A DNA stretch of 64,000 nucleotides from Cenococcum geophilum (lineage: Eukaryota), in assembly GCA_050273025.1 (NCBI GenBank), contig CP158635.1, positions 13,454,001 to 13,518,000 on the forward strand, in the 5' to 3' direction. The notes below the pieces were generated by a model. That model searched no databases and was not told the origin of the DNA. It worked only from the letters and a program-made list of their open reading frames with translations. Position numbers and translations under genes: made by a program. This document shows, piece after piece, positions 16,901 through 39,929 of this stretch; position 1 is the stretch's first letter, and each line of letters opens with the position of its first letter.

Positions 16901-17659
16901 ACTTAAAGAACCGACTCCTCCAAGGCTTCGTTCGGTTCGCGTCCATTACGCAAAATCTACTACAAGAGACAACACGCGATCGCTCCTACTAAGGCCCGTC
17001 AATCACGTCGCGTTTACTAAGAAGAACCGACTCCTACCAAGGCTTCGTTCGGTTCGCGTCTACCACGCAAATTAATACCCAGTACGACCTCTTTACTAAG
17101 CGCCAGTACACCCAGCAGCGTCAGCAGCACCCCTACCTACACCCCTACCTACACCACGACCTACACTACGACCTAAACCACGACCTACGCCAGCCAATTA
17201 TGTTCGATATAAGAACCTAACGTCCGAACTAGGCCAACGGAATCACCCTAACCAGCAAGACTACTGCAGAGGATATTACCAATTACATTTACTTCAAAAT
17301 CAATAAGTATACTAGCTATAACTTTAAGGATAAAACCCTATGGGATTTATACCAAGAGGACTTTAATAATTTTAAGGTATAAATATTTAAGGAAGCTAAT
17401 AGGTCTGCAATTAAAAAACTTAAACAACTGCTCCAATATAATAGAGTATAGGTCTTTAACAAAAAGAGTAAGTTAGTACCACAAGCACTATATAACGTCG
17501 CTTACGAGGACAACCGTACGGAATAGTTAGATGCAGAAATTAAGCTATATATCAACAACGAAGGACCCTTTAATTCGTATGCTATCAACTATCGTCTCAA
17601 ATTACGCCCACTTGCCACCACCCCTAGGACACCTCAACCACCTGTTGCATCTATACCCT

Positions 17660-17900
17660 AGCAAGCTCCGCCCACACAAGCCTCGTCCGCGCAAGCTCCG
17701 TCCAAGCAAGCTGCTCCATCCGCACAAGCTCCGCCTGCACAAGCTCCGTCCACGCAAGCTCCGTCCACACAAGCTCCGCCCGCGCAAGCTCCGTCCAAAC
17801 AAGCTTCGTCCGCGCAATCTCCGTCTACGCAAGCTCCGCCCACGCAAGCCCCATCTACACAAGCCCCATCCGCGCAAGCTCCGCCCGTGCAAGCTCCGCT
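17660..17900 (+). repeat. 15-bp coding minisatellite (GCAAGCTCCGYCCRC)n encoding QAPPA/QAPST
   Basis: About 16 tandem units visible; this repeat produces the overlapping ORF-track calls. Confidence 0.9.
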
Positions 17901-18429
17901 AGCTTCACCCTCTCCCTTAACCAAAGCCAAGGATCCACAGCAGCCAAGCTCATACGAACCTCCGCAACCTACCTAGCGACAGTACAACTCAGCCCCAGCT
18001 GTCTCAAATAACCTTCCTCCTACGGCCAAGCTCCCCCTGCCTACAAACGTCACAGCTATCTTAAATAACCTTCCTCCTACAACTGAGCTCCACTTGCCTA
18101 TAAACGTCACAGCTACTTCTACAAACGTTACGGCTCCCTCTGCGAACGTCACGGTTCCCTCTACAAATGTTACAGCTCCCTCTACGAATACCCCTATAAC
18201 ACCTTAAACACCTATTGCATTTATATCCCAACAGCCTACCCAGCAGCAGCAGTACGACCCTTAGCAACCTAGCCGATAGCAGTATACCCTATTGCAATTT
18301 ACCCGACAACAGCAACCAGACCCAGGAGGAGGAGGAACAACAATATACAATACTTGGTTATCAGCCCTTCCACCTGTTTTCCCCTATAGACACCCCAGTA
18401 ACACCTTATACGCGTCTACCTATCTCCAC

Positions 18430-18575
18430 CACAATATCCGAATATTTACGATATCCGCAATATCCGCAATATCCGTAGCAATATTCGCAATATCCGTAGC
18501 GATATCCGCAATATCCGTAACAATATCCGCAACGTCTGCAATATCCGTAATATTCGCAATACCCAAGACATTCGC
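18430..18575 (+). repeat. 9-bp tandem repeat (ATATCCGCA)n, YPQ in the gag-like frame
   Basis: Repeated atatccgca/atatccgta units. Confidence 0.85.
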
Positions 18576-19182
18576 GATTACTGCCCTGAGCACCTGTTGA
18601 CCTATATACTTCTCCTTTATACTTTTATACCTTCTTTCCTTTTTATAAATATCGCCAGTGTCTATATAAGTAGAGGTTACGTAGTCATGTCTCTAATTAG
18701 TCATCCTTACAGTAACTCATCAGCCCCCTATTTAGGCACCGCGATCCTTACGATCCTCTGCAAAAGACATGAATAAATCAAAGAACCTGTTACCTTATAT
18801 TGCAATTGCAGTACCCCCCCAGGTGATACTGACAATTACTATTAAGGTTATGCGCCTACTAAATATTAACTACTTTAAGTAGGTAATCGCTCTATTTAAT
18901 AGAGAAGTTATTAATAGAGTAGTTAGCTTATTTGCTACGGCTAAAAATATATTATATAACTATAAGACGTTTAACCTAGGTAAAGATTTTACTACTAAGT
19001 TAACGGTTAATTTTACTTATAATGGCGTCTTTAATATTAAAGTTCTTATTATTCTAATTAACAAGATCTAAGCTATAAGGGCCCTAATTAAGCCTCTCTA
19101 GATCTAACAGAACTTTTAAATTTAGGCCTTTAAGTCTCCTAATATTATACTCCTATCTAGCCTAAAGCTTATCCCTTCTATA

Positions 19183-19407
19183 TATTAGGTAAAACCTAAG
19201 TAGATAGTTATATAGCTGTAAGGCATAGGCGACCCTAGGGCAACCTAAGGGTGACTCGCTTGTAAGGTATGTGCGCTATATATACCTAGGGAAAACCCTT
19301 CCTACCTCGCACATAGACTCCTCCTTTTCCCTTAAGGATTTGTCTCTATCTATACAATATACCTATTATTCTATTATTAGACTCCCTATCTACATCCTTA
19401 CCTTATA
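19183..19407 (+). mobile_element. Solo LTR (225 bp), distantly related to the LTRs at 38521 and 49435
   Basis: Absent from the homologous site in copy B (~20420); 5-bp TSD CTATA (19178-19182, 19408-19412); shares CCTTAAGGATTTGTCTCT with that LTR family. Confidence 0.8.
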
Positions 19408-20224
19408 CTATACTCCTTCCTTACCTTAACTTCCTCCTTAGTTTTATTATAATAGCGCCTATAATAACTATAGCCTTCTAATACCTAATATAATATAGCC
19501 TCCTTAACTTCTTTAACTTTCTTAACTTTCTTATTTTAAAACTGTATACGCTAACTATAGTCTATATATAGCTCTATATAAGTTACCCAAGTTACCTTTA
19601 TTAGTTTAGCGCGCTAGCTAGGCTTAGGTAGCCCTAGAGGAGGAGGAGTAGATAGCTTCCTACGTTTATTTATAGTAGAAGCCTTAGGAGCGACACTAGC
19701 AGTACGTAAATAAGCGTAAGTATTACTAATAAAGCGAGTACTGCTAGCTAGAGGAGCTGCTAATAGCGTTACTAGCGTTAACTTTAAGGCCTACTTTGCG
19801 GGCTATTTTGTAGGCTTCTTTACAGGCTTCTTTGCAGGTACTATAACACTAGAAAACGCGTTAAAATAGGTTAAATAGTAGGGTGACGTCGGCTTTAACT
19901 TACTAACTAGTAGTAGGGATATTATATCGATAATAAGGCGCGTTTAACGTGGGAATAGGCTATCTCACGGTTTTACACATAAGGTTAGGTGCAAAATTTA
20001 GGGATCTGCATACTAAGGATTAGTTGGTTACAAAACGGACTAGAATCCTTAGCATGCAAATCCCAAATTTTTGCGCCTAACATTACGTATAAAACCGTAA
20101 GATAGCCCATTTTCCACATTTAACGCGCCTTATTATTAACATAGCTCCCTATAATCCATTAGTTAGTAAGTTAAAGCCGACATCTCCCCGCTATTTGCCT
20201 TATCTTAACGCGTTTCCTAATATT

Positions 20225-22140
20225 ATAGTACTCACAAAGAAGCCTACGAAGAAGCCCGTAAAGTAGGCCTTAAAATTAACACTAGTAACGTTAATACCAT
20301 TAGCAGCTCCTCTAGCTAGCAGTACTCGCTCTATTAGCAATACCCACGCTTATTTATATACTGCTAGTATTATTCCTAAGGCTTCTACTATAAATAGGAA
20401 GTTAAGGTAAGGAAGGAGCATAGGAGGGACGAGCTTTATACTAGATAGAAGTATAATATTAAGAGACTTAAAGGTCTAAATTTAAAGGTTTCGTTAGATC
20501 TAAAGAGGCTCAATTTAAGCCCTTATAGTTTAGATCTTGTTAATTAGGATAATAAGAACTTTAATATTAAAGATATATTAAAAGGCTAGGCGGGAGATCT
20601 ACGTTAAAGGCGTTAAATTTATGATTAAGGTATTTATCTTAAGCGTTAAACTAAGTAGGTAACTATTAACTATCCTATCTATAGTTAATTTAGGCTCTAT
20701 ATTAATAGTTCTAAGATTACTATAAACTATTTAGTTAAGTAAAAACGGTAGTTATATAACCTAAGCCTTATTAAGGACACAATTATAAATAAGATTAACT
20801 ATTAACTTAGTAGTAAGATTTACACCTAGGTTAAATATCTTATTATTATATAATATATTTCTAGCCATAGTAAACAAGCTAACTACTCTATTAATAACTT
20901 CTCTATTAAATAGAGCGATCGCCTACTTAAAGTCGTTAATATCTAGTAGGCGTATAACCTTAACAGTAATATTTAATTAACTTTTAAAGTTAAGATTAAC
21001 TATAAGGCGTTAATAAGGTTAGGAAGGAAAAGGAAGGTTATTAAGAATATTAAGAAACTTGCTAAGATCCTATCTTCCCTATTAGTTACCTTATAGTCTA
21101 AGAGTCCTACTCTTATATTAAGCAAAGGCGCTCCTATAAAATTATGCCTAGAGCTATTACTATAGTAGAATCTAAGCCGTTAAGTAGTATATAAGGATAT
21201 TACTAACTTTTAAGCTCGCTTAGGGAAATAGATTAAGTGTATATATATAAACTATAGTAACTATTAAAACTTCTACAATATATTTAATAGTTAATACTAC
21301 GCTATTAACGCTGCTTAGTATAAGGCCTAGGCAAACGCTATTACCTCTAGCGACGCTTAATATAAGGAGCCACCTATAAAGGTCTTCTGTACTCTTATAG
21401 CAGACAATCTAATTAGCCGCTTAGGTTAACAATCTTATAAACCTTTAGCGGCAACTAAGTTTTATATGGCAACTAACTATATAGCTAAGCTTTAAGAACT
21501 ATAGATAAAGGCCTATAGACGTTAATTAAAGAATAGAGAAGAAGAGAAGAAGGAGCGCTATAATAAATAATATAAGGAATAAGAGAAGCATCGCCGTCTA
21601 ATCGCTATATAGAGATAGTAGTAACAAATAACAATATTTCTATATAGCTTTAATTAGCAGCTGCCTACGTATTCTTAATACTACGCTGGCCCTTCCTATA
21701 CACAGTATCCGCAGAATTAAGTGCCCTATCTACTACCGCAGCAGCTTTAACCACCTTTACTACTACCTACTTAACTGCCTATTTAGCCTCAAATCCGAGC
21801 TACTCCTACTATTAGCCCTCCACCGCCGCCTCCTCCTATACATAATATTAATAATTACTTATATTTAAGTCCTATATTAGTTAATAAAGAGGATATAAAT
21901 ACTATTTAGTGTCTATTTATTTAGAAGCTAGAGAGGATATATAATATTATAATATAAGAGAAACTAAAATAGTTTAGAGATATTATATTAGAATAATAGT
22001 GGAGTTTAGATAATCTACGTATTATAAAAAATAAAAACTTATATAAATTTTAGAGGGCTTTAGAGCTAGATACCGTTAATAGCTTTATTAATAATATAGC
22101 TAGTTAACTCCGTAAGTTTAAGGTATACTATAGGCAGTAA
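20225..22140 (+). pseudogene. Unknown ORF2 of copy B: Cys/His-motif protein with a helical C-terminal domain
   Basis: Starts (M)VLTKKP.KKP.K. 21232-21375 reads KC...N(C).N(H).NF(C)..F.G.(H)YA.NAA.(H).A(W)ANAI.S(G)DA....PP after RIP reversal. WSLD.LR near 21999. Confidence 0.6.
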
Positions 22141-22509
22141 AAGGCTGCTATAGCGGCAAACGCCCTTATAAACCTAGTAGGAGGCTTTACACGTATATAA
22201 AGTATATATTAACTAAGTAAAAGTTGGTGTTTTTTTATAGCAATTTAATATTAGATAATTTCCTAGTAAGTACCTATAGCAATATTAAAGGCCGTAGTTA
22301 ACTCCTCTAGCCCTTAAACCTTAACACTATGCTTAAACTACTTTAATTAACGCCGTAAACGCTCTAGCTTAGCCTATTCTATATATATTCCTTCTACGGC
22401 ATATTTAAACTACTACTAAGTAAAGAAATTGCACCTACTTTTATAAATAGCTCCATCGGGAAAATATTCGCAGGATAAGATTTAAGTAGACTTTGGTTTT
22501 CTCGTTTCG

Positions 22510-22850
22510 CGTAATTGACATGCAATTTGACCAACTCGACACGTAATTAACTAACTTAAAACGCAATTGACCAACTTGATACATTTAAAGGTTAAATAAC
22601 ACGCAGTTAACCTACTTAACAACTTTAAAAGCTAACTACATATCTCTTAACACGCAGTTAACCTACTTAGCAACTTTAAAAGCTAACTGCATATTTCTTA
22701 ATATGCAGTTAACCTACTTAACATATTTAAAAGTTAAATAATATGCAGTTAACCTATTTAACAACTTTAAAAGCTAACTACATATTCCTTAACACGCAGT
22801 TAACCACTTAGCTACTTTAAAAGGTAACTATATATTTCTTAATATGCAAT
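22510..22850 (+). repeat. ~20-bp and ~41-bp tandem repeats (TTGACCAACTTGATACGCAA type)
   Basis: Recurrent gcagttaacctacttaacaactttaaaagctaact units; also at 34200-34390. Confidence 0.75.
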
Positions 22851-22934
22851 TAAGGTAAAGTTATATACTATATATTTAACTATTATATATTATCTAATAT
22901 AATCTTATATAATCTTATATAGTTTTATTACTTA

Positions 22935-23092
22935 GAGGCTCTATATAAGGCTCTATATAAGGCTCTATATAAAGCTTTATACAAAGCTCTATATAAAGCT
23001 CTACACGAAGCTCTATACAAAGCTCTATATAAAGCTCTATATAAAGCTCTATACGAAGCTCTGCGTATAGAGGCTTTGCACGAAGCTCTGTA
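22935..23092 (+). repeat. 12-bp tandem repeat (AAAGCTCTATAT / GAAGCTCTGCAC)n
   Basis: Directly visible; related arrays at 34450-34508, 36770-36922 (reverse) and 56985-57335. Confidence 0.85.
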
Positions 23093-23177
23093 TTAGGTCC
23101 CCACTATATTCCTAATAGCCTCTATATATGCCTTTACCCTATATAGCTACCTTATTTTTTTTACCCTTCCTTTCTTA

Positions 23178-23486
23178 CGGAGGTCCCTAATAAAAGTTCT
23201 TACACCTTCCTAATTAGGAAGTTTTAAACTGATATACGCGTAAGTATAGGTGCGTATTTTATAGCCTACGTAGCGTATACTAGAGTTCTTACAGCGTATA
23301 TTAAGGCATATAAACTTTAAATATTAATTTACCAGCCTAATACTATATATAATAAAAATTCCCTATTAGATTTTTAATTTATACTTAGTAAGATAATATA
23401 TAAAAATATAAAAAGTAGTAATAAGTATTATTATTCCTAAAACTTCCTAATTAGGAAGGTGCAAGAACTTTTATTAAGGACCTCCG
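23178..23486. mobile_element. Tc1/mariner-type MITE (309 bp)
   Basis: ~48-bp TIR CGGAGGTCC(C/T)TAATAAAAGTTCTT(A/G)CACCTTCCTAATTAGGAAGTTTT; TA on both sides; absent from the homologous position (~34590) of host copy 2. Confidence 0.9.
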
Positions 23487-23944
23487 TATATCCTCCCTAT
23501 TTAAAAAGGCACTAAAATAGTAGCTAGTAAATGACCGTTACTAGAACTAAATAACTATCGCTAAAACTAAATAACCAATACTAGAACTAGATAACGACCG
23601 TTTAAATAACTAGCTAGTAAACACTATAAATAATTTAATTAATTAATTAATCAAATTAAACTAGAGCTTTAATATTAGCCTATTACCGAATTAAATCAAG
23701 GCCTTCTAGGGAGGCACCCTAGATAACTACCGTTTAAATATAATTAGGGCCTTTAATTAGGCCGACCTTTCCCCTAAATTAAATTATATACTAATATAGG
23801 CAGGCAGGTAAATAGGCAGGCAGGTAGGTAGGTAGATAGGTAGGTAAATAGGTAGGTAGGTAGGTAGGTAGGTAGATAGGTAAATAGGTAGGTAGGTAAG
23901 TAGGTAGGTAGGTAGGTAAGTAGGTAAATAGGTAAGTAGGTAGG

Positions 23945-26040
23945 TTTTATTTTTATTTTTATTTTTATAGGTCTGTTGTATTATACTACGTACAATACTG
24001 CGCATGTAGCCTCTAGGCTATAGCGCTATAGTTCTATATACATAAATCCTTTCTAGGCAGCTTAATATATACTAGTAGCTATGTCCTAGTAGTTTATAAA
24101 CCCCTAAGGGTATATAGCTCCTTAATAAAATACTAAGGTACTGCAACTACTAGGGAATAAGAAAACGGTAGGAAAAACCATAGGAAATCCTAACACCTAT
24201 CCCTGTCCTTTTGCAATTTATTTCTGTCCCTTTACTCTCTAATATCTTTTTAAGAGCCTAGTAGGAGTTGCCTCCTTCTAGGGTCCTATCTGTTTTATTC
24301 TTCCATAGAATCTTCTTTACGTACTAGTTTAGCAGCTTTAAGAGTCTTGCAATCTTTACTATTAGCAAAGTGTTTTTCTTTACAACTAATGCAAAGAGGG
24401 GTGGTATGCTAGTAAGGCTTGCCTATTATTATATAGGTAGAATAGGAATAGTCTTTAGATAAATATACAGCTACACAGTATCTATAGGCCCTAGTAGAGC
24501 ACCTATCTCCTATATGGCCGAATTTTTAGCAGCTCGTACACTGCGTAGTAGGAGAGACTTCGAGGTATTTTACTACCTTAGTAGCTGTACCTGCAATTGA
24601 TATCTCTTTTTACTTAAGGATTTCTTGTCTTTTTTCTTCGTTCTCTATAGTAAAAACTATAGAGCCAAATCTGGTCTATAGATTATGTCTTTTTTCACTA
24701 AATAAGATCCATCTAGGTAGTCCTTATATCCTTATAGGATTAAAGGTCTCAATTTCTTCCTTTAGGAGCTTAGAGCCTCCTTCTCCTAGGAAAGGTAGGG
24801 TAGGAACCCCATAGGCTATAATTTGAACCCATAGTTCTAGTTTTTGTTCTCTTTAAAAGGTAAAGCAGTTATACTAGATATCCTTATATTTAACTAAGAA
24901 ATCTGCATTATACTCTTCTGTAGTTATAAGGAGAATATTTTGTTTTCCTTTTGTTCTAGCTATCGATGCTAAAACTGGCTTTTTTACTTGCAATTTTGAT
25001 GCAAATAGTTAATTGACTTTATTTCGTATAGAGAAGGTATCTAGGGGTTAGTCCTTTTCGTCTGTAATTAGGACTAGCTTTCTTTCTTATAGCTGCTTTT
25101 TCTTACTTCTAGTAAAAGTAGAAGGGGTAGGAGAAGGTAGTGATAAGGAAGGTAGTAAGAATAAAGAAGGGAGGTCCTTCTTTAGCCTCTCTATATAGGT
25201 TTCTTTAGTAGGGGCCACCTCCTTACGGAGAGCTCTTACTTCTTCGACTAGTCCTTTTAGGACTTCTTTTGTCTTTTCTTTCCCTTTTATAAAGGGATTT
25301 TCTCCTACTAGGATACTGCGTGTATAGTCCTCTAGCTGTTTAACTTGTTCTTTTTTTTCTTCTTCTTCTTCTTCTAGCCCTTTATAGGCCTGGGTTAGGC
25401 TTTCTAAGGCCTTTTATAGGTGTTGTTCTGGAGAAAGGGGAGGGAAGGATATACTAGGTATACCAGCCGTAAAAGTTATAAGTTTTATTGTCTTTTTTGC
25501 AGGTTTTTGGTTTTCTTTTTCGGTAGAAGACTGAGGATGTCCTCTTTTTCTCCTGTCTCAAATAGGCCAGGAGAAGGAGAAGGGGCAGAGAAAGTGAATG
25601 TAGACTCATTGTCACTTATTTCTATAGGAGGTTGTTGTTTTTTTTTATGCCTACTAGGCTTCGGCATCTTATAGGAAGGCTCCCTAGTTTTTACTATCCT
25701 TATACCCTTTTTCCTTACTAATCCTACTAGAAGATTTCTGGGGAGATTAGGCTAAAAGGTAGTAGAAAAACTAGCTCCTATTTTGCAGTTTTGGTATTAG
25801 TGGTAGTAGTAGTAGTTTTGGTGTTCCCGTCCGTGCCTCGCTTATAAGCTAGGGCCACCCTTAAAGAAAATTTTCTGTTGGGAAAAAGGGGTAAAACAAT
25901 AAATAAATCCACCTCTAGCTCGCTAGGTAGTAGGAATTAGGTCTTAAAAGTTGGAAAATCGATTGTTTTTGATGGTAAGATAGGTATGCGTAAGTTTTAA
26001 AGTGTGGCGCTACCTTTTGGTAAGGTTGCATGTGTAGTAA
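23945..26040 (-). mobile_element. ORF1-only non-LTR (LINE-derived) retroelement, copy 1 (~2.1 kb)
   Basis: Near-identical to 44439-46536 apart from RIP and small indels; (TAAAAA)n tail directly after the single ORF; TSD obscured by the AGGT repeat. Confidence 0.75.
23975..25667 (-). pseudogene. LINE ORF1/gag-like nucleic-acid-binding protein (MPKPSRHKKK..., C-terminal zinc knuckles), RIP-degraded
   Basis: ORF-track start at 25667; C-terminal (C).N(C)(Q)D.....(H).AA(W)KG at ~24045-24105 fits the last knuckle of fungal LINE ORF1. End approximate. Confidence 0.65.
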
Positions 26041-26127
26041 GTAGGTAGGTAGGTAGGTAGGTAGGTAAGTAGGTAGGTAGGTAGGTAGGTAAGTAGGTAG
26101 GTAGGTAGGTAGGTAAGTAGGTAAGAG

Positions 26128-26292
26128 ATTACTATTACTAGAACTAGACTACTATCGCTAAAACTAAACTACCGTTATTAAAACTAGATAACTGTTACTA
26201 GAGCTAGATAATCGTTACTAGAACTAAACAACCGTTACTAAAACTAAACAATTATTACTAGAACTAAACAACCGTCGCTAGAGCTAAATAAT
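26128..26292 (+). repeat. 20-bp tandem repeat (AACTAGACGACCGTCGCTAG)n
   Basis: Directly visible; also at 23530-23600, 34640-34900 and, reversed and less mutated, at 36385-36628. Confidence 0.88.
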
Positions 26293-26425
26293 AATAACTA
26301 GCTAGCGAATACTATAAACAATTAAATTAATTAATTAAATTAAGGCAGTATAGATAAATAGGTATAAATAAGGAAATGCTAACAGGTAGGTAAATATAGA
26401 TAGGTAGGTAGATATAGGTAGGTAA

Positions 26426-29400
26426 TGTTATGGCACTAACCTAACGCATACTGTTTTATACTATCTCATACTATTTCCTACTATTAGCCAGCCTACTACT
26501 AGTGACTTAGCGGCTGGCCCTACCATTTATATATAATACCCCCTTTCTACCTTCTTCCCCTCTTTATACTATAACGTAGTTATTTAGTCTACTTTATTAT
26601 AGTACTATAACAGTTTATAGTATCTTTAATTTACGCCCTATTACGATCACTAATTCCTTATACCCTAGCTAATTAACCTCCACTTAGAGCAATTACGACC
26701 TATATACGCCTTTACTAAAACTAATACGTCCCTAGCATAGTTCTAAAATAATCCTTAGTTTTTACCTAGCGCCTAGATAGGCGACACTAATAACGCCGAA
26801 ATGGCCGAAACTTAAAACCCCTATAACGTCTTTATAGACCTCTTTATAAAGATATACCCCAATATTATATAGATAATCCGCCACTCCCTACTATACCCTA
26901 AGACCTTTAAGCCTAGCAAAGCTTACCTTACCCTTATTAACTATACTAACAAGTTCCTTAATAATATTAAAGTAGGACTATAGTATATATATAATATAAA
27001 CACCGCCAATAAGAAAGCTAATAAAAACCTTATTACCCTTATTGCTTTCTAGATAGGAACTATTAACTCCTAGGCAGAGACTATCGCCGTTCTAAAATAA
27101 TTAACCCCTATAATAATAGTAGTAACCTAGTAGAAAAAACAGAGATCTAAAGACCCGCTAATATTTAGCGGAAAAGGTACCCTACTAAAATAATAAGCTA
27201 ATTTTAAGACCTAGCACATTAAGATTAAGGGAGTCTTTAACTAGGACTGGGACTACTTTAATATAATTTAGTCCCAGATCCTTTATATCTTAAGTATACT
27301 AAAGAATAAGACCTATAAGTTTATTAAGTAGGGCCTAGAGCTTATATACGAGAACCTAAACAATATATTTGCATAGAAATAGCCTATTAAAGAAGATATA
27401 CTTAAAGACCTTACTACCTACTATAAGGTCCTTAATATAACCTAGGTTATAAAGAATAAGCTTAACCATTTCCCCTAGGGCGAGCGTAATTACTAGTCCT
27501 AAAAGGGAGAGCTTAATAAGCTAATAGTCCGCGCTAAAAAGATAGACGAATAGAAGGTAAACCTACTCTAAAAGTTTATCTCTCTAAAGATAAAAGAGCT
27601 AGTACTTAAACTTACCTATAAAATTAATAATAGCAACTATATAGGTTAGAGTAAGTAAATAGATATATTTGCTAAAAACTTTATAAATTATACACACTAA
27701 GCTAACCTTAAGAAGAACGCTAACTACCGCCTACCTGCCTAAGCCCATACCCCTATATTAACTCTAACCCTAGTAGTAACTAAAGAACCTATAAACTTTA
27801 ATAAAATCTTAGATACGGAGCGTAAGCGCCGCGTTAATAATAGATTATACCTTATCTATAGCCTACCTAGCTACTAAAAGGACGCCTATAACCCCGCTAA
27901 GATAGCAAACCTAGTCCTAATACCACCCTATTAAATAACGCGAACTAATAACCGCGGACGCAGCGACTATAGAGTCTATTATAGACGCGGCAACCGTAGA
28001 GCCTATTATAGCTACAGTGGACGGCCCCCCCTTTAACCCTACGGCTTAGTTACTCTAAACTATATCCTATATAGGAGCCTAACCCATTAATAACGCTTAG
28101 TATTAGCGGCTCCGCGCTAGTAAATATAAATACGGCTATATTATTAGCGAGGTATTATCTTCCTATACCCTAATTAAGACTAAAACTAATACCGCTAGCT
28201 AGATAAACACTAGACCGCCCTACTAAGACAGCCTTATACCCTAGTTGTTAAAAGGTAAACCCTTAGACTAAGTTATATCTAAGGGTCTAAACTATATAAG
28301 GAGGAAGACGAGAAGATTAGGTCCCTATTACTAGATTAATTAAACCTTTTTATTAGTAAGCTGCTACTTAATCTTAGATTAGCAAATAGTAATAAAAAAT
28401 TAATCCTTATTTAAACTTAACTCTCCTTCTTATATAACCTATACCCCTAAGTTTATATTAATATAGTAAGCCTAGTAGACTCTAGTAGTACTATAATAGT
28501 ATTTATTAACGCAGAGTCTATTATAAAAAAGTATAATATTATAACTAAGAAGCTGCTAGTACCTAGGCTACTACGCCTTATAGATAGTATTCTATCTTCG
28601 CTTATTACGGACTACTTTACCGCCTAAATATTAATCGGCCTTTATACTAAAGCTATGCTTTTTTTAATTACTAAACTCTTGCCTACTACCCTAATTATTT
28701 TAAATATACCCTAGCTTTAGAAGTATAAGCCCCGCCCTAGCTTTAGGAAACTTAAAATCCGCTTTAACTTAGACTACTACTTTAGGTACTACCTTCCGTA
28801 GGGGATAACCGACGGTAGTAGGGACGCCTTATGTAGATACTTAGCACTACTAAGCCTAGTGCCTAGGACTATATATAAAGCCCTAATAGTAAAAGACGTT
28901 CCTAATAAAAGGGAGCCTATATAACTATAAAGAAACGAAATAGTAGAAGACTAAACTACCCTAGCACTTAAGACTAAAATAATAGGCCAGCCAGCCCTAC
29001 TAAGACTAAAAAAGAAGGTCCGCTTTACGCCGCTATTATTAAGAATCTAACCCTAACCTAGGTACTATTTAAACCCTAACCGCCTAGCCCAATACCTAAA
29101 ACTAAGCTATATACTATATACGTATACTATAGCTCGCGTTATAGCAAGGACTGGCTATAGAACTACTAAGACCCGGATAATAGAAACCGCGCCACTATAA
29201 CGCCTAACCTTATACCTATCTCCCGCGCGTACTATATAGGGCCGCCGCCTCATTTCCGCCCCCTTAGGCCGACTAAGCTATGCTAGCCTAGCTGTAGCAC
29301 TAGATAACTAGATACGCCCTAACTTAGATAATATTAAATATACTTATACTATTAATTTCACCCAGTTCTATAAATAAAAGGACGTAAAGGTAATAAGGAT

Positions 29401-32400
29401 CTATATAGCAGAGCTAGTAGAACTAGTTAAATAAGATAAGCACTAATAGCTACTTAGAGAGCTACCTATAGGCCTAATAGAAGTACTAAACCTATTAAAA
29501 AGGGTTTTCCGCTAGCTAGTAGAAGGCAACTATATAATAAAAGAAGCCTATAAAGTGCTCCCCCTCTATTTCTATAACTTCCTTAAGATAAATCTAAAAA
29601 CTAAACCTGAGCTTTTACGTTAGAAGATAGTTAACACTAATATTAAAAATTTCCTAAAAGGTAAACCAGGATTAACCCGTAAAGACTTTCTATAATGCCT
29701 ACTAAAGGAGTTTCGTAAATATATTAAGTACTTCCTCCCTAAAAATATAGATAAGCTGCCCCCTTACCAACCATAGGACTATAAAATTAAGATTACCCCC
29801 GGAAACTAAGCCCCGTACTATAAAAATAGACTACTCTTACTTACTAAACTTAGGTATATAAAGAAGTGGATTAATAAAATACTGGATAGGGGTTTTATCC
29901 GCGAATCAACCTTACTAGCTACTATACTACTCCTTTTTACTACTAAGCCTAGCGGCGGTATATAAATCTACTATAACTACTAAGGCCTAAATACAGTCAC
30001 TATTAAGAATTAATACCTACTGCTACTAATCCGCGAGATACTTAACGCACTCTATAGTACTAAGTACTTTATTAAACTTAATATAATTACTACGTTTAAC
30101 TAAATCCGGATTGCGGAGGGCTATAAGTAGCTTACAGCATTTATTACCCAATTTGGACTCTATAAAATGCTAGTTATACTATTTAGCCTTTATAACGCAC
30201 CCGCTATATTCTAAAACTATATTAACCATATTCTATATAACGCCCGTAATAACTACTACACTGCCTACCTTAATAACGTCCTTATCTTTTCTAAAATATG
30301 CGCTAAGCATACTAAGTATATAAACAAAGTCATTTAAAGACTTAGTAATGCTAGACTTTAAATTAATATTAATAAGTTTAAGTTCTACTTTACTAAAACA
30401 AAATACCTTAGCTTAATTATCTTAACTAATAGTATAACTATAGACCTTAAGAAGGTATAAGCCTTATAGAAATAAAAAGACCTAACATTAATTAAAGAAC
30501 TATAATAATTTCTTAGCTTCGCGAACTTCTACTAATAATTTATCTAAGGCTACTCTGCTATTGCTACACCTATAATAAAACTCCTAAAGAAGGATATCAG
30601 ATGGCTATAGGGACTAAAATAAGCTAAATCGTTTAAGGCCCTTAAGGGAGCCTTTACTTCAGCACTAGTATTAGTATACTATAACTATATAAAGAAAATA
30701 GTGGTAGAGATAAATGTATTAAATTAGGCTTCCGGCGGAGTCCTTTCCCAGTATAATAATAACGGAAAATTAAAACTGGTTGCATTCTTCTCTATAAAGC
30801 ACTTTACGCTAAAGTATAACTATAAGATCTATAATAAAGAACTCTTAGCTATTATTAAGGCTTTAGAGAAATAGCGTCCTAAGCTATAAGGGACTAAGGA
30901 GCCGTTTAAAATTATTACCGACTATAAAAACCTATAGACATTTATAACTACTAAGCAGCTAAATTAGCGCTAAGTCTAGTAGGTAGAGTTTCTTTTATAG
31001 TTTAACTTTGTAATTATATATAGACCTAGTAATAAAGCTACGCTCCCTAACGCCCTAAGCTGGCTACTAGGAATAAGGCCTAAGGACGCTAATAATAAAC
31101 GCCTTTACTACCGAGCCTAAGTCGTTATACCGCCCTAAAAAGTTAACACTATAATCTTAGAAGAATTACTATATAAGTCCTATAATTATAATAACGTAGA
31201 GTTTATAGCCGCTTTAGACCCCAAAATAGCTAAAACGTTACTAGATAAGTTAATCTAGCTAGAATACTAGGAGAACGAACTTATAAGAGATATAATAGCG
31301 GCCCTACGTAATTAGAAAGCTCGCTATTAGCTAAAGAAGATTAGGAAATTACTTTATTATAATAAGTTAGAATATAGTATTATTAACAAATAGATCTACT
31401 TCCGCCAACATCTCTTTATCCCTAATACCCTATACCTCCGCCTAAAAGTTACCTATTACTCTTATAGCAGCGGCCCCACTAATTACCCTAGCTGGGTTAA
31501 AACTCTTAACCTCTTAAACCAAATATATTAGTAGCTAGGAATCTCCTAATTTACGACTACCTTTGTTAAAGACTATACCCTATACTTTTATACTAAGACC
31601 CCTTATTCTGCCCCGCCTAGTTTTCTAAAGCTACTATAATTACCTACCTACCTGTAGACTAATATCTTAATTAACTATATTATAACGCTGCTAGTATACT
31701 AATGCTATAGTAAGGTATATAAATATATCCTTATTATTATAGACCGCCTAACTAAAATATAACACTTTATTTTAGTAATAAGACTCTTAATAAAGGAGCT
31801 AGTTAATAGCTTTATTAATAACGTATATAAGCTCTATAGTATACCAAGTATAATTATCTCCGATTACGGTATATAATTTATTAGCAACTTTTAGCGACGA
31901 CTAAGTAAACGCCTTAAGATAACCTTGCGACTAAGCTTAACCTAATACCTAGAAACGGACGGCTAAACTAAAATTATTAACGCTGCCGTAAACAAATACC
32001 TTTATACTTTTGTTAGCTTTATATAGGATAACTAGGTTAACTACCTATTGCTTACTAAGTTTGCTATAAATAACTAAGTTAATAAGAGTATAGACATCTC
32101 CCCGTTTTTTGCAAACTATGGCTTTAATCCTTACCTTAGAATTAAACCTGCTAGCTCCCGCCTACTAATACTATTAGTATAAGCAAAGGAGTTCTTCTAC
32201 GCAGACTTTATAGCTAACCGCTTTAAGCGGATATTAATATAGCTTAAGGCCCTAGCCTAGATTTTATAGTAATACTATAAAGATAATACTAATACTTATA
32301 GGGATGAGAGCGCGTTATTCTACGAAGGCGATATAGTTATAGTTATAGTTAGCTTAAAAAATATAAAGATAAATAAATCTAAGAAGAAATGGGATAATAA

Positions 32401-33341
32401 ATAGGACGGCCTATACCCCGTACTCGTAGTATACTAAGGGGTAGTTATAGTAGACCTTTCGGACTATATCCGAGTAAATAAATCCTTTTATACATCTAAG
32501 GTCCGCCTTTAGGCTGCTAAAGAGATCCCTAGCTAAGCAAATATTAATACTATAGAGCGCCGTAATATATTAGGACAAGTAGTAGAAAAAAAATAATAAC
32601 GGCAATATAGAAGACAAATAGGAGTTTAAGAAAATCCTTAATATATATAACGAAGACCCCTAGGGCCTAACTTATAAGATTAAATAGAAATATTATAAGG
32701 ATATAACCTAGTAGCTAGAGGAAAATCTAAAGGGTTGCAAATAAGCTATATAGCACTTTTATAAGTAATACCCTAAGAAGCTAGGACCCCCAGACTAGGC
32801 ACGAGATAAGGAAAAGTTATACTAAAGTCGCGGCCGACTACCGTATTAAAATTTATGGTAGTTAAGATGTTATAGAACTTTAACCAGCGGTTAAAGTTAT
32901 TTAATTAGCCAAATTCTTGCCAAGAAACGCCACGCGGATTAATTTAGGTGGTAGTATAGAGTTCTATTAACCTTACTTACTAAACTAACTAATTAGGATT
33001 TTCTATACCCGGTATAGAAAATCACTATTAGCTTAGTTAAGGGCGGTAAGCAGAACTAATATCTTTGCGGTAAAAAATAGGTAACCCTATACACTGCCTA
33101 TTTTTAAGTTATCTATTTAGTTTAAGGACCAAACTATCTAGAGGAGAGAAGTACTGTTACGGTACTAACCTAACGCATACTGTTTTATACTGTCTTATAC
33201 TATTTCTTACTATTAGCCGGCCCACTACTAGTAACTTAGCGGCCGGCCCTACTATTTATATATAATACCCCCTTTCCACCTTCTTCCCCTCTTTATACTA
33301 TAACGTAGTTATTTAATCTACTTCATTGCAGCACTGTAATA
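26426..33341 (+). mobile_element. Full-length Ty3/Gypsy chromovirus (6916 bp), RIP-inactivated
   Basis: 187-bp LTRs at 26426-26612 and 33155-33341; TSD GGTAA (26421-26425, 33342-33346); PPT GAGGAGAGAAG before the 3' LTR. Confidence 0.95.
26801..32860 (+). pseudogene. pol: Gypsy gag-pol remnant (gag from 26801; protease, RT, RNase H, integrase, chromodomain from ~28380)
   Basis: LVDS(G) at ~28472; KP(G)GG...(D)Y(R)GLN.VTIKN(R)Y(P)L(P)LI at ~29945-30030; AYL(D)(D)VLIF at ~30262; (H)(P)ETDG(Q)T(E)I.N at ~31946; chromodomain ~32615-32770. Confidence 0.88.
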
Positions 33342-34141
33342 GGTAAGTAAATATAGATAGGTAAGTAAATATAGATAGGTAAGTAAATATAGATAGGTAA
33401 GTAAATATAGATAGGTAAGTAAATATAGATAGGTAGGTAGATACTAATAGGTAGGCTAATATAAATAGGTAGGTAGATACTAATAGGTAGGCTAATATAA
33501 ATAGGTAGGTAGATATAGATAGGTAGGCAATATAGATAGGTAGGTAATGTAGATAGGTAGGCGATATAGATAGGTAGGCGATGCAGGTAGGTAGGTAGAT
33601 AGGTAGGTAGATAAGTTAATAGGTAGATAGGTAGAAGAGAACCATCGCTATATTATATTAAATTATCTAAAATAATATTTATTTTGCTAGCCTTATAAAT
33701 AGCCTTAAAGTAGCTTTTATTTATTTAAAAGAGGTAAATATAATTATAGTTACGAAATGCGTAGATTACTAGTAGGTTGCGTATAGGCTATATATTAAAA
33801 AAACACAATATAGGCTAGTCGGTCAAGTTGCTAAATGCCCTTAACTACGCGCTAATTACGTCAACTACTAACCATTAAGGCCATTGGTAGGGTACTATAT
33901 TTTGCCGATATCGCTTAAGAAACTTACTATAATTATAGTAGAATTCTTAAGTATATAGGTGCTAGCGACGGATCTATACTTTTAAAACGGCCTATATTAG
34001 CTTAATTAGATTAAAGTTTAGTAAGTATAGCGATAGATAGCAAAGAATATAGCCCTCCTCTTTAACAGCAGCTAGAATTTACGCGTTAACGTAAACCTTA
34101 AGGTTATCTATTATAATTACTATAGTTTAATTTAGATATTA

Positions 34142-35516
34142 CATCGGGAAAATATTCGCAGGATAAGATTTAAGTAGACTTTATATAGCGCGTTTCGCGT
34201 AATTAATATGCAATTTAACTAACTTAATACGCAATTAATTAACTTAATACGTAATTAACTAACTTAATATGCAATTTAACTAACTTAATACGTAATTAAC
34301 TAACTTAATATGCAATTTAACTAACTTAATACGCAATTAACTAACTTAACAACTTTAAAAGCTAACTATATATCCCTTAACATGCAATTAAGGTAAAGTT
34401 ATATACCAATTACGTAATCTTATATAATCTTATATAGTTTTATTACTTAAAGGCTTTATATAAGGCTTTATATAAGGCTCTATATAAAGCTCTATATAAA
34501 GCTCTATATTAGGTCCCCGCTATATTCCTAATAGTGTTTATATATATCTCTACCTATATAGCCGCCTTATTTTTTACCCTTCCTTTCTTCCTTATATCCT
34601 TCCTACCTAGGGAGGCACTAGAACGGCAGCTAGTAGAGGACCGTTATTAGAACTAAATAACTATTACTAAAACTAGATAACCGTCGCTAGAACTAGACGA
34701 CCGTTACTAGAACTAAACAACTATTGCTAAAGCTAGACAACCGTTACTAAAACTAGACGACCGTTATTAGAGCTAGACAACTATCGCTAGAGCTAGACAA
34801 TTGTCGCTAGAACTAGATAACTATCGCTAGAACTAAACAACCGTTACTAGAATTAAACAACCGTCGCTAGAACTAAACGACCGTCGCTAGAGCTAGACGA
34901 TAATAACTAGCTAGTAAATACTATAAACGATTTAATTAATTAATTTAATTAAGGTAGTATAGACAAGTAGGTATAAACAGGGAGATGCTAACAGGTAGGC
35001 AGATATAGATAGGTAAGTAGATATAAATAGGTAAGTAGATATAGATAGGTAAGTAGATATAAATAGGTAGGTAGATACTAATAGGTAGGCAGATATAAAT
35101 AGGTAGGTAATGCAGATAGGTAGGTAATATAGATAGGTAGGCGATGTAGGCAGGTAAGTAGATAGGTAGGTAGGTAAGTTAATAGGTAAATAGGTAGAAG
35201 AGAACCATTGCTATATTATATTAAATTATCTAAAATAATAATATTTACTTTACTAGCCCTATAAATAGCTTTAAAATAGCTTTTATTTATTTAAAATATG
35301 CTATTAGTATAAAAAAGGTAAATATAATTATAGTTGCTAAATACGTAGATTACTAGTAGGTTGCGCATATGTTGCGCGCAGGCTACGCGTAGGCTACGTG
35401 TTAAAAAAACACGATATAGGCTAGTTAGTTAAGTTGCTAAATAACCTTAACTACGCGCTAATTGCGTTAACCACTAGCCATTAAGGCTATTAAAAGGGTA
35501 CTATATTTTGCTAATA
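34142..35516. mobile_element. Non-autonomous minisatellite-rich TIR element (CATCGG termini), copy 2, uninterrupted (1375 bp)
   Basis: Same termini and repeat-block order as 22454-33910; 2-bp TSD TA/TG (TG before RIP) at 34140-34141 and 35517-35518. Confidence 0.85.
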
Positions 35517-35630
35517 TGCCTATAAAGCGTAGGAAATAGGTAGCCGTATAGCTACCTTATAAAGTTATTAATCTTAAAGTAGCCCTTATAGACTTAATAG
35601 TAAACCTAGTTATTAATTATTATAGCTACG

Positions 35631-36924
35631 TTAGGAAAAAATTTACTAGCATTTTTATAGCATTTAGTAGCATTTAGCGGCCAAATATATATTCCACGCA
35701 CTATAATATATAGCGTATGGTATCGACTAAGGTATAGTATACTACTATATTTAACAATATAGTGCGGTATACTGCTGTATTTAATAATACAGTGCGGTAT
35801 ACTACTGCGTACTACTATATTTAACAATATAGTGCGGTATACTACTATATTTAATAATACAGTGTAGTATACTACTATATTTAATAATATAGTGCAGCTA
35901 ATTACGCATTTTGCACTTAATGCGCAATTAATATATAATGCCCTCCTTATATATTCTGTATAATGCCCTTCTTACGCATTCTATATATCTTACTTAATTT
36001 AAGCAATAAATAAGTATTACTCTTTCTACGCAGTTAGTGCAAAATAAATTATATTATTTTAGATAATTTAATATATAGCGACGGTTCTCTTCTACCTGCC
36101 TATCTACTAACTTACCTACCTGCCTACCTATTAACCTACTTACCTACTTACCTACTAACCTACCTACCTATCTACTTGCCTGCCTACCTACCTGCCTACC
36201 TATCTACCTACCTACCTGCCTACTTACCTACCTATCTATCTATTTGTCTGTCTGTTTATCTATTTATACCTACCTACCCGTCTATACCTATCTATGCCTA
36301 CCTATCTATACCTACCTGTCTATATTACCTTAATTCGATCAATCGATTAAATCGTTTATCGTGTTCGCTGGCTGGTCGTTTAAACGGTTATTGTGTGGCT
36401 CTGGCGACGGTTATATAGCGATAACGACGGTTGTCTAGCTCTGGCAACGGTTATCTAGCTCCGGCGACGGTCGTCTAGCTCTAAAGACGGTCGTCTGGCT
36501 CTGATAGTCGTCTAGCTCTGACGACGATCGTCTAGCTCTGGCGACGGTTATCTGGCTCCGGCGACGGTCGTCTAGCTCTAACGACGGTCGTCTGGCTCTG
36601 ACGGTCGTCTAGCTCCGGCGACGGTCATCTGCTGGCTGTCGTTCTGGTGTCTTCCTAGGTAGGGAGGATATAAGGAAGGGTAAAAAATGAGGTATACTTA
36701 GCAGAGGTATGTGTAGAGGCTATTGGGAATATAGCGGGGACCTAATAGTAGTGTGTCGCGCGTATATATAAAGGCTTTGTGTAGAGCTTTGTATAGAGCC
36801 TCCGTATATAGAGCTTTATATAGAGCTTTATATAGAACTTTATATAGAGCTTCGCGTAGAGCTTTATACGGAACTTTATATAGAACTTTAAACTTTATAT
36901 AGAACTTTATGCGGAGCCTCTATA
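35631..36924 (-). mobile_element. Reverse-oriented relative of the minisatellite cassette with a different terminus (TTAGGAAAAAATTTACTAGCAT)
   Basis: 36050-36920 is the reverse complement of the cassette in 34450-35240; extra 30-bp tandem repeat at 35735-35895; TSD not resolved. Confidence 0.7.
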
Positions 36925-37226
36925 TTAGGAAAAAATTTACTAGCATCTAATTTTACTTTTTTACTTTTTTAGCATTTTCTAGCATTTAGCAGCTAAATAC
37001 TAATACTTAATTATATATACAGCATTTAGCGGCTAAATGCTAGTACTTAGTAATAAATACAGCTAAATGCTAATACTTAATTATAAATACGGCATTTGGC
37101 GGCTAAATACTAATACTTAGTAATAAATGCCGCATTTAGCTACTAAATGCTAGAAAATGCTAAAAATGCTAGAAAATGCTGAAATGGCAGAAAAGTAAAA
37201 TTAGATACTAGTAAATTTTTTCCTAA
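36925..37226. mobile_element. Foldback MITE (~300 bp, largely self-complementary)
   Basis: TTAGGAAAAAATTTACTAGCATCTAATTTTACTTTT mirrored by AAAAGTAAAATTAGATACTAGTAAATTTTTTCCTAA; internal GCATTT/AAATGC repeats. Confidence 0.8.
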
Positions 37227-39929
37227 TATATATAACTACTCTAAGTATCGCCTCTTTAAGAATCGCCTTAATAGCACGCCTCTTTACTAACTAGAGCTCG
37301 CCCTCTTATCTACTAGCTAGTCTTTTTTATTAAAAATAGCCTTATTAAGGAATACTATAATATCTGCTAGAAACCGCCTTATATTATTATAATAGAGCTC
37401 CCTTAACTATAAGTTATAGCCCTACGCTATACGCCTAATTCCCTTCTTTAACTACTATTTCTTTTTTAAAACACAGTGGATTATAGGATAAGTAATATTA
37501 AGATCGCGTTTATAATAGAGCTAGTACTAAATTTTATCTAGATATTTCTAACCATTGTAGAGTAGGAGCTTAAGGAGGGCTTCTTTATTAGCTCTTATTA
37601 ATGCTACTAGCTAGCTAGTCTTCCGTATATAAGGCCTAATAGGCTAGCTATATTATATAAGGCAATGTTCGGTATTATATACAGTAGTTTAACTAGCGTA
37701 TAGCTGTTCTATAATAGCATCTGGTTACTAGTCTAATTTAAGTAGACAGATTATATCCGCGCGACAAGTAGGGTTAATACGAGGCACTATAACACTAGGA
37801 AACGCGTTAAGATAGGGCAAATAGCGGGGCGACGTCGGCTTCAACTTACTGACTAATAGACGGTAGGGAGCTATGTTGACAATAAGGCGCGTTAAATGTA
37901 GAAAATGGGCTATCTCACGGTTTTACACGTGAGGTTGGGCGCAAAAATTTGGGATCTGCATGCCAAGGATTCCAGTTCGTTTTGCAACCGACTAATTCCA
38001 GTTTGTTTCGTAAACGATAAATACTTACAAAAACGGTAGTAAGAAAACTGCAGTACCGATATTTCGGTGATGACTGTAACGCGTTAACAACCTACTGTAA
38101 GTGCCCAAATATTGAACCTGGCGCGTTACCTAGTTAGAGGTCACGACGGGCTCGTGCACGGTTTGATCACGCATTATTACCAACTTCAAAAACTCACAAC
38201 TCCACCAGATATTTATAGATTTCTACCAAATTAAAATCAGAGAGTCTTTTAGTGTTACGCTTTCATTCCATTGTAATCACAGAGTCGCCGTGCCATTTGG
38301 GGGGGTTGCGCATTTGTTAAGGCCGCCTGGAGACCACCTTCTCAACCCCATCCTCTACCTCGTACTCCTCCTTAATAGAAGCCTCCTCCGGAATAGTAAA
38401 TATAACCTACTTAACCTTCTGCCTCTCCTATATTAATCTTCTCTCCGCTTTAAGCTATGCGTTAAACTCTTATATAAAGCGAGCCTTATCTATAAAGCGC
38501 TTTTTCTCTTGCTTAGTATCTGTAAGTGGATTTTGTAGACAGGGGGCTATAAGGACACAATTGTAGAACAGGATAAATTGGTAAGAGAGACGAATCCTTA
38601 AGGAGATAAGGCCTCTAGGATCGTGGAGACTATATACTACGGGCACGTGCCTCCGGTACGTGACTAGTAACTATTTAAGGGGCGTCTAGGAGTTGTCCTA
38701 AGGGCAACCTAAGGTAACCGCAATAATATCCCTCACATTGCCCCCCCTCCTCCCTCTTACGGTCAGCCCCTAATCGCTATTACCTTGCGGTAGGGAGATT
38801 ATAAGGGCTCGTCCTAGAAGGGGTTCAGAGAGATATTAGAAAGGTATTAGTATACCACTATATATTTTCTATCTATCTAACCCTTACTTTAAACTCCTAA
38901 AAAACCTTAATAAGGGAAAAATATAACTAGAGAAAAGATATAAGGATTACTAAGAACCTACTAGAGGCCTACTAGAAGCCTACTAATAACTACCTAGGCT
39001 AACTTAAGGATTTTTATACAACTTTATATCTAAGCCTTTATACCAGTCTATAATTAATTATAAGTATTATAAGCAATTTAGTGTTCCTAATATAGTTCCG
39101 TAGAACTATTTAGTATATAGCTTAATATATAGGGCCTTAGCTTGCCATTATCTTTTAACTATTAAAATATAATCTATAATCGTTTTATATAATCCTTTAC
39201 GTCACTAATATATTATTCCCACATTTACCCTTAGGCTATTAGATGCGGTTAAGGTATTAATTAGTTAATTAAGGAGACTTGTCTCCTAAGATTTAGTATA
39301 TATTATCAGGTGACGAAGTCACCTTACCTATATATATTGTTCCGCACAGCCGTGTCTAGCATTAAGCCAGTCACTCGTTTACCTTTTGCGGGTTTATGTA
39401 GCTGAGTGGTGCGAAGCTTATCACCTTATATATATACTTTTAAATCTAGTAGTCCTATGCCATATATTTGGCGTAGCTCTACTACCTAGCAAATAGGGAC
39501 ATTTCGCGATAGTAATTATAGCTATTATGCGATTATCAAGAACGTCTATAATGTTATTCTTTAATACTATAGTATCGTTTTAAGTCTAATTTAACCCATA
39601 TACGTCTTTAATTTAATATCTTAATTACCTTCCCCTAGCCGCGTAGTTAGTTTTTATAAAGAAGTAATAGTTAAATAACTTATACGCGTGTTTCCTTTTT
39701 TTTTTTAAATAGCGCTATTATAACGGAGTTATATTAGTAAGGTTGCGGCTATTTACTAGAAGGGTATTGGACGGTAAAGTATAAAGATACTTTGCTTATC
39801 GAGCTTAATCCTTTTCCTTAACACCTTACTTCCCATTATTAACCTTCGTCTAATTTAGACGTATCTTTAATATATTATTAAGATTTTCTTCTTTTTTATT
39901 ATTAATTTAATATACCTCTTTATTCTCCT

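Follow-up and report, generated by a model that had tools for sequence, protein, structure and literature searches.

Evidence for a second, convergent gene and a start-codon-forming intron in the terminal inverted repeats of an IS630/Tc1-type fungal transposon

Tc1/mariner elements are the textbook minimal transposons, with one gene between two repeats, and Tc1-like members, of which impala and Fot1 are fungal examples, usually measure ~1.3–2 kb. How far this picture extends is the question raised by an element, hereafter copy 1, in a 64-kb stretch of DNA from Cenococcum geophilum (the window, i.e. the whole stretch analysed; coordinates are window positions unless another locus is named). A first-pass annotation, made from the letters of the window alone, had read copy 1 as an IS630/Tc1-type element laid out like maize MuDR, in which each long terminal inverted repeat (TIR) supplies the start of one of two convergent genes, a DDE transposase and a second gene, called here open reading frame 2 (ORF2). 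Two issues follow, namely whether ORF2 is a gene at all and how two proteins could start from one repeated sequence. The analysis presented here indicates that ORF2 is a real second gene, and that the start codon of the transposase is formed only when a 63-nt intron lying inside the TIR is removed from the RNA, an arrangement that would also apply to ORF2.

Any answer has to reckon with the state of the window, which is AT-rich throughout (GC content per kb 0.28–0.49) and has no stop-to-stop frame longer than 127 amino acids (aa). Between copy 1 and a second copy of the same element (copy 2), 367 of the 426 differences are C→T or G→A, and such an excess of transitions between repeat copies is characteristic of repeat-induced point mutation (RIP) in fungi, which favours CpA/TpG contexts. 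Copy 1 is best explained as a RIP-inactivated member of a fungal DNA transposon family, with both window copies dead, and we regard this explanation, taken jointly with all the parts set out below, as probable. Pfam searches with six frames of both window copies (X at stops) returned 0 families for 13 of 13 queries, the transposase included, despite motifs of the latter that are recognisable by eye; of 865 candidates from a k-mer search of proteins with the transposase of the window, 0 were significant, and the true frame of this gene contains ~10 stops per 100 codons, equal to the wrong frames. Because the undoubted transposase gives the same nulls, null results obtained on the window copies carry no weight. 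De-RIPing with copies 1 and 2 hardly reduced the stop counts.

Further copies were taken from JGI metagenome contigs scanned with protein P0020, which gave 16 loci (designated L001 and so on, L001 being the least mutated). The same element is found in all 16, with 72–93% nucleotide identity per aligned block and 80–88% in the main blocks. Thirteen loci extend into both genes, the order and orientation of which are constant; of the others, L008 and L012 end at a contig end and the copy in L009 breaks off. The canonical element measures ~3.77 kb (e.g. L002 93–3866) and has 211-nt TIRs. Across the termini of the loci, the left ends of L003 and L015 among them, at least two subfamilies can be told apart by their terminal sequences, TAGTCG... 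and TTGTCG/TTATCG..., and L003 has a variant inner TIR edge with a genomic ATG. Deletion forms that have lost nearly all of ORF2 and kept the transposase occur among the DNA contigs of sequencing run X1 (joints at L001 187→2353 and 229→2231).

A de-RIPed consensus of 3,766 nt was built from the 16 copies. In it, ORF2 forms one frame of ~775 codons, which begins within the left TIR and ends at position 2410, with 9 stops in 732 codons versus 28–58 in the other five frames; in the transposase frame, 4 of 341 codons are stops, a density of 1.2% equal to that of ORF2. In single copies, ORF2 is unbroken over all the sequence present at 11 of the 16 loci and shows 1–3 frame changes at 5. Insertions and deletions (indels) of ≤30 nt come in multiples of 3 in 19 of 24 events within ORF2 versus 5 of 20 elsewhere in the element, counts that are not fully independent since 8 of the 19 are of 9 nt, the length of an EVK repeat unit. 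The purine/pyrimidine pattern survives RIP, which makes transitions only, and it shows a strong three-base rhythm at element positions ~100–1100 (p down to 6e-5 per 300 nt); the codon-position composition of ORF2 also matches that of the transposase. A frame-likelihood track based on transposase-type composition recovered the transposase frames and favoured frame +3 for ORF2 of copy 1. The ensuing candidate, that +3 and not the +1 of the first-pass annotation is the coding frame, proved half right and was dropped: ~235 nt of ORF2 are missing from copy 1 at ~20391–20396 (element position ~376), and it is this deletion that shifts the frame of copy 1 from +1 to +3.

Homologues of ORF2 were sought by phmmer with the X-read frame +3 of copy 1 (P0003) against 1.84 billion representatives, which gave 15 matches at E ≤ 1e-3, 8 of them at E ≤ 1e-10. 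Most are short ORF fragments with 57–82% identity from ENA, Logan and JGI assemblies, and two of the matches (P0008 and P0017) begin in frame +1 and then continue through the sequence missing from copy 1. One match is an intact, distant homologue of 624 aa (P0018, E 7e-5) that aligns with ORF2 end to end, over the central domain, the Cys-x6-Cys region and the tail; tblastn of P0018 against L001 gave E 1e-19 and 28% identity over 299 aa. Searches by k-mers, in which P0018 and profile A2 of ORF2 served as queries, returned nothing beyond P0018 itself. Taken together, reading frame, composition and homology argue that ORF2 is a real second gene, convergent with the transposase and a constant part of the family.

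The first gene, read from the minus strand of the least mutated copy (L001:2300–3508), was correctly assigned to the IS630/Tc1 type in the first-pass annotation. It matches Pfam DDE_3 (PF13358; E 3.6e-15, 56.5 bits, cut-off 28.6) and the helix-turn-helix (HTH) family HTH_23 (27.9 bits, cut-off 24.6, residues 9–49), together with NCBIfam IS630 at E 6.4e-23 and 81.6 bits, which is under the cut-off of 100. Two catalytic aspartates, D150 (D in the consensus, N in L001) and D236 (present), are followed after 35 residues by the position of the catalytic E. The protein, ~400 aa long and with DD35(E) spacing, is a DDE transposase of the IS630/Tc1 type. No MULE-type transposase family was found among the 9 Pfam families at E ≤ 0.1, which are DDE_3 and HTH families only.

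How the two genes start was first sought in a pair of ATA codons (20225 and 37790), taken to be RIP-mutated ATGs lying 204 nt from the respective termini. The distance is as claimed, and trivially so, both codons being inside the repeat; their proposed origin is not borne out. The codon reads GTA in 3 of 18 aligned family ends (L001 right, L005 left, L011 right), which are among the less mutated, and since the G of GTA stands in a TpG context the ancestral codon is read as GTR. In the unspliced DNA, no in-frame ATG exists at the required N-terminus of either gene, and the Pfam HTH match begins 5 residues past the spliced Met described below, upstream of the first genomic ATG. What the TIRs do carry, read against the general fungal splice-site consensus, is a candidate intron. 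GTAAGT follows an A in 17 of the 18 ends (the left end of L005 is deleted there), 15 of these 17 have an acceptor AG|T(G/A), i.e. TAG, at a distance of 63 nt, and a branch-like CTTGAC/CTTAAC lies ~20 nt ahead of the TAG. The predicted splice ...tcA|TGcc yields a transposase starting MPPIDPARRAD... and an ORF2 protein starting MPAKKPAKKPAKQ..., and both genes start where the TIR has its inner edge, their frames relative to the repeat being the same. In copy 1, the intron of the right TIR occupies 37787–37849 (minus strand; orthologue of L001 3502–3564, placed by gapless pairing of the TIRs) between the A at 37850 that ends exon 1 and the TG at 37786–37785 that begins exon 2, so that splicing gives A|TG CCT.... 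Its predicted counterpart in the left TIR, GTAAGT...TAG, occupies 20166–20228 (plus strand) and matches the intron removed from RNA at the right; exon 1 there would end with the A at 20165 and exon 2 begin at 20229 with TA, a RIP-mutated TG.

Four runs were mapped on L001:1–3704, namely X1 (DNA), X21 (stranded raw RNA reads from a related organism), and X22 and X23 (RNA-type contigs); an RNA run for the window stretch itself was not among the runs listed. Contigs of X22 and X23 contain the joint L001 3501→3567 with TA between, which is the removal of 3502–3564 plus one RIP-type mismatch, and the splice joint is covered to a depth of 80 by X22 and of 213 by X23; among the 967 records of X1, 0 contigs contain it. 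Splicing at the transposase end is thereby shown. Coverage in X22 and X23 is strong over the transposase (2481–3704), weak over 125–620 and nil between, and X1 covers all 30 bins. First mates of X21 map to the minus strand over 125–620 (depth 7–28 versus 0–3.4 on the plus strand) and to the plus strand over 2977–3596. Since the splice assigns the transposase RNA to the minus strand, the RNA at the left end belongs to the plus strand, the sense orientation of ORF2. RNA runs inward from both ends of the element, in sense. Given the matching intron sequence of the left TIR, the ORF2 message would be spliced in the same way. The claim that each TIR supplies the start of a convergent gene therefore stands as regards inner-edge starts and inward RNA, and is amended in that the start is made by the spliced A|TG.

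Three further features were seen in these RNA contigs. In one further contig of X23, the donor is unchanged and the acceptor lies 8 nt farther upstream, which gives a 55-nt intron (L001 3509/3565; window equivalent 37794); this acceptor exists only where RIP turned CTGG into CTAG, and the resulting ATG would be out of frame. A 49-nt skip (L001 3031→3081), present in contigs of X22 and X23 and not in DNA contigs, removes the region of the first catalytic Asp; it was rejected as an intron, having no GT-AG and being bounded by CCGGC direct repeats, and is read as a deletion variant. Finally, the transposase RNA contigs leave L001 at the stop codon (2484) and go on for 94 letters of other sequence, a 30-mer of which was found neither in the window (≤3 mismatches) nor in the 16 loci.

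These results suggest a mechanism in which each TIR would act as one expression cassette read inward, in which a promoter is combined with a first exon that is non-coding and with an intron of 63 nt (GTAAGT...AG). The TIR presumably is active as a promoter. Removal of the intron would join A to TG and so form a start codon just where the inner edge of the repeat lies, in such a way that one repeat could start two proteins.

The target site also sets the family apart. Of 19 ends, 17 have AT next to the element, and L015 has CT on either side; what flanks the element is therefore a duplicated dinucleotide that does not belong to the repeat. The sole empty site on hand, the TIR of copy 2 into which copy 1 inserted, likewise shows a duplication of AT. 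The target-site duplication (TSD) is thus 2-bp AT, not TA. The TIR contains no internal direct repeat of the IR/DR type (score 12 versus a shuffle mean of 13.2).

The ORF2 protein is laid out as a Lys/Pro-rich N-terminus, coiled coils, a small α/β domain, a Cys-x6-Cys...His stretch, a Gln/Pro-rich linker and a helical tail. A search of PDB sequences with profile A2 gave no match (best E 0.59), and Pfam scans of 4 natural ORF2 translations and of P0018 gave no match to OrfB_Zn_ribbon or a nuclease. The AlphaFold model of P0018, computed on the shallow alignment A2, is poor (mean predicted local distance difference test, pLDDT, 45.5). Its residues 192–299 (pLDDT ~52–66) resemble the PB1 domains of MKK5, NBR1, Cdc24 and p62 with Z 6.2–7.4, i.e. 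under the Z of 8 taken as meaningful, at a root-mean-square deviation of 3.2–3.7 over 83–92 aligned residues. The C-terminal tail of ORF2 is modelled as four to five helices (pLDDT 70.9); its language-model look-alikes are SAM clusters at 0.80–0.83, which is lead level, and in fold searches the best Foldseek E is 2.4 and the best VIA Z 5.4 (RbcX), with tankyrase SAM at rank 39 (Z 4.0). The PB1-like and SAM-like resemblances, both drawn from models, are leads only. With low confidence, ORF2 may have an accessory role in transposition, its Lys/Pro-rich N-terminus contacting DNA or chromatin and its folded domains mediating self-association. By analogy with the presumed roles of MURB or of PIF ORF1, it could serve transposition by binding DNA or chromatin or by helping to assemble the transposase complex.

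Set beside known systems, the element shares with Tc1-like (IS630-Tc1-mariner, ITm) transposons the DDE_3 domain, the N-terminal HTH, the TIRs, a 2-bp target duplication and a cut-and-paste anatomy, and differs from them in having two genes and not one, AT and not TA as duplication, a splice-made start codon and a length of 3.77 kb. PIF/Harbinger elements also have two proteins, a DDE transposase and a second, Myb-like protein needed for transposition, and they differ in transposase superfamily, in a 3-bp TSD and in the Myb-like nature of the partner. The maize element MuDR, as described in the accessible text of PMC3440606, contains two convergently transcribed genes and ~215-bp TIRs with promoters, and the function of its second gene is unknown. 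Its likeness to the present element lies in the layout, i.e. convergent genes and inward RNA from the TIRs, and in this sense the earlier comparison stands. In ancestry the two elements differ, the transposase being of DDE_3/IS630 type and not MULE, and the TSD 2 bp and not the 9 bp of Mutator (PMC3627910, accessible text); ORF2, moreover, matched no known family in family searches, MURB itself not being aligned. The resemblance to MuDR is one of convergent layout, not of kinship. Mariner elements with one or two further genes inside their TIRs (Fanzor1, endonucleases, methyltransferases), with TA TSDs and mostly from giant viruses and protists, are described in the accessible text of PMC3627910. 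They share with the present element a Tc/mariner transposase accompanied by a further gene, and because they are known a multi-gene ITm element is not unprecedented; ORF2 differs in lacking an OrfB_Zn_ribbon or nuclease match and in being fused to a TIR-borne start.

As for novelty, the literature searched, in which the accessible texts of PMC5751038 and PMC9977792 were covered by term search, contains no description of a fungal two-gene Tc1/mariner element, Repbase and Dfam lying outside that search, nor of a TIR-borne intron that forms a start codon. The proposal of an undescribed two-component family is to that extent sustained, the accessory nature of its second protein being something that we infer. 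The start-codon-forming TIR intron, with its RNA evidence, and the AT target duplication are new details. It is conceivable, and put forward tentatively, that the family represents a two-component IS630/Tc1 lineage of filamentous fungi in which ORF2 is needed for transposition or regulates it, one TIR cassette co-expresses both proteins and the target has shifted from TA to AT. A second gene of 775 codons that has been kept breaks the one-gene picture of Tc1/mariner, and ORF2 would represent a new family of proteins that probably take part in transposition or in controlling it. One repeated TIR sequence could co-regulate two proteins, a solution that maize MuDR would have reached independently in like form, and translation is coupled to RNA processing by a start codon that only splicing creates. 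For annotation, such elements explain ‘oversized’ Tc1-like repeats in RIP-affected fungal genomes.

Several observations weigh against the main interpretation, that of copy 1 as a RIP-inactivated two-gene element with TIR cassettes. The RNA label of X22 and X23 is a guess resting on their coverage pattern and intron-less joints, only 40 nt of the left-end exon are present in L001, which puts a splice there beyond the reach of mapping, and the three RNA-type runs give no depth over the ORF2 body (L001 621–2480) and no full-length ORF2 message. The target duplication is AT instead of TA, a defining feature of Tc1/mariner elements and a hallmark of the superfamily according to the accessible text of PMC3627910. 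The position of the catalytic E is occupied by K (AAG/AAA) in 14 of 14 copies; a GAG→AAG change by RIP is plausible there, the G being in a TpG context, and unproven. ORF2 matched no Pfam or NCBIfam family, the Pfam scans giving 0 families for the 4 natural translations and none above cut-off for P0018. Transversions are distributed 29/32/44 over the ORF2 codon positions, which is not significant (p 0.17), as is also the case for the transposase control. Lastly, the linkage of ORF2 to the transposase is seen within one element family, and linkage of P0018 is not among it.

The alternative that survives best, unlikely as we hold it to be, makes ORF2 a passenger, i.e. a captured host gene lying beside the left TIR and expressed from its symmetric promoter, with no role in transposition. 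P0018, intact and distant (22–28% identity), could itself be an ordinary host gene, and mariner elements with unrelated extra genes are on record (PMC3627910, accessible text). ORF2 contains no domain linked to DNA transposition, and the X1 DNA contigs that lack nearly all of it still have the transposase. A mere captive, in turn, would hardly be expected to be fused in frame to a TIR-borne start codon, to be kept as one frame in both terminal subfamilies (TAGTCG and TTGTCG) and to have indels that are mostly in frame. Much less probable still is a chimera, in which an ORF2 half from another transposon was joined to a one-gene Tc1-like element and the halves do not cooperate: the ORF2 half has no TIR or TSD at its inner boundary, the two TIRs share a single sequence, which carries the codon at which ORF2 starts, and all 13 loci reaching both halves have the same order and orientation, against which can be set the size of the element, twice that usual for Tc1, and the RNA contigs that depart at the transposase stop codon into 94 foreign letters, by which variants with another 3′ half may exist. 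A reading without any second gene, in which the left 2 kb would be non-coding filler and the symmetry of the starts that of the TIRs, can practically be dismissed, for although the ATA symmetry is trivial, ATA is not a former ATG, the ORF2 frame of the window copy has 9–10 stops per 100 codons like other frames (two frames having fewer over the first 900 nt) and Pfam finds nothing in ORF2 of the window copies, the undoubted transposase gives the same nulls there and the idea is already contradicted by the consensus stops (9 in 732 codons versus 28–58), the gene-like codon-position composition with its 19 of 24 in-frame indels, and the intact 624-aa homologue P0018 with its tblastn match.

With ORF2 read as a second gene of the family, the anatomy of copy 1 can be followed along the window. 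Its TIR arms (20019–20229 and 37786–37996) are 211 nt long and 88% complementary, in agreement with the ~211 bp first proposed. Each arm includes the flanking AT, the left TSD being at 20019–20020 and the right one at 37995–37996: the TIR of copy 2 reads ...ggaAT[copy 1]ATcct... as compared with the uninterrupted ggaATcct. The left TIR proper (20021–20229, plus strand) aligns with 17 other family ends, and the right TIR proper spans 37786–37994 (minus strand). ORF2 of copy 1, RIP-mutated, extends over 20229–22200 on the plus strand and ends with the stop TAA at 22198–22200; the transposase stop lies at 22316–22314 on the minus strand. The two genes converge, as had been described, near 22140–22330, across a spacer of 113 nt between the stop codons (22201–22313).

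The transposase of copy 1 is split on the minus strand into four pieces, the 5′ part with the HTH and first Asp region (37238–37786), piece 2 (35519–35630), piece 3 (33913–34141) and the 3′ end, piece 4 (22314–22453, from its translation). Between them lie nested insertion 1 (22454–33912, 11.46 kb), insertion 2 (34142–35518, 1.38 kb) and insertion 3 (35631–37237, ~1.6 kb). Excision of all three leaves 3,531 bp. Copy 2, located by BLAST of element pieces against the window (14275–20042, minus strand), is uninterrupted at all three insertion points (empty-site joints 15127|15126, 14899→14895 and 14786→14780), and because it is contiguous there the boundaries of the insertions in copy 1 are correct, as is the ~3.5-kb element deduced earlier from them.

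Copy 2 is inverted relative to copy 1, lacks the 5′ end of the transposase and the right TIR, and extends over 14275–20020 on the minus strand up to copy 1, which sits within its left TIR; its outer 26 nt (37995–38020) directly abut copy 1 on the other side, and of these the outer ~24 nt of the left TIR (37997–38020, minus strand) were cut off by the insertion. It retains part of the ORF2 stretch lost from copy 1 (19181–19667). The order of events would then be insertion of copy 1 into the TIR of copy 2, followed by the three insertions and the 235-nt deletion, and then by RIP over all.

Insertions 1 and 2 have common termini, CATCGGGAAAATATTCGCAGG... and ...ATATTTTGC..ATA, and with copy 2 as empty site they show 2-bp duplications (TC; TG/TA). 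They belong to another, unrelated TIR element family, represented here by a long copy and a copy of 1.4 kb. The TIR of insertion 3 is 19 nt long and perfect (TTAGGAAAAAATTTACTAG), and the right junction of this insertion is a few bases off copy 2. Copy 2 is itself split at 16600–18834 by C-rich minisatellite arrays, ~2.2 kb in all, the periods of which are 9–57 nt (e.g. 17661–17898 and 18432–18561), and this region is the most GC-rich part of the window (0.41–0.49).

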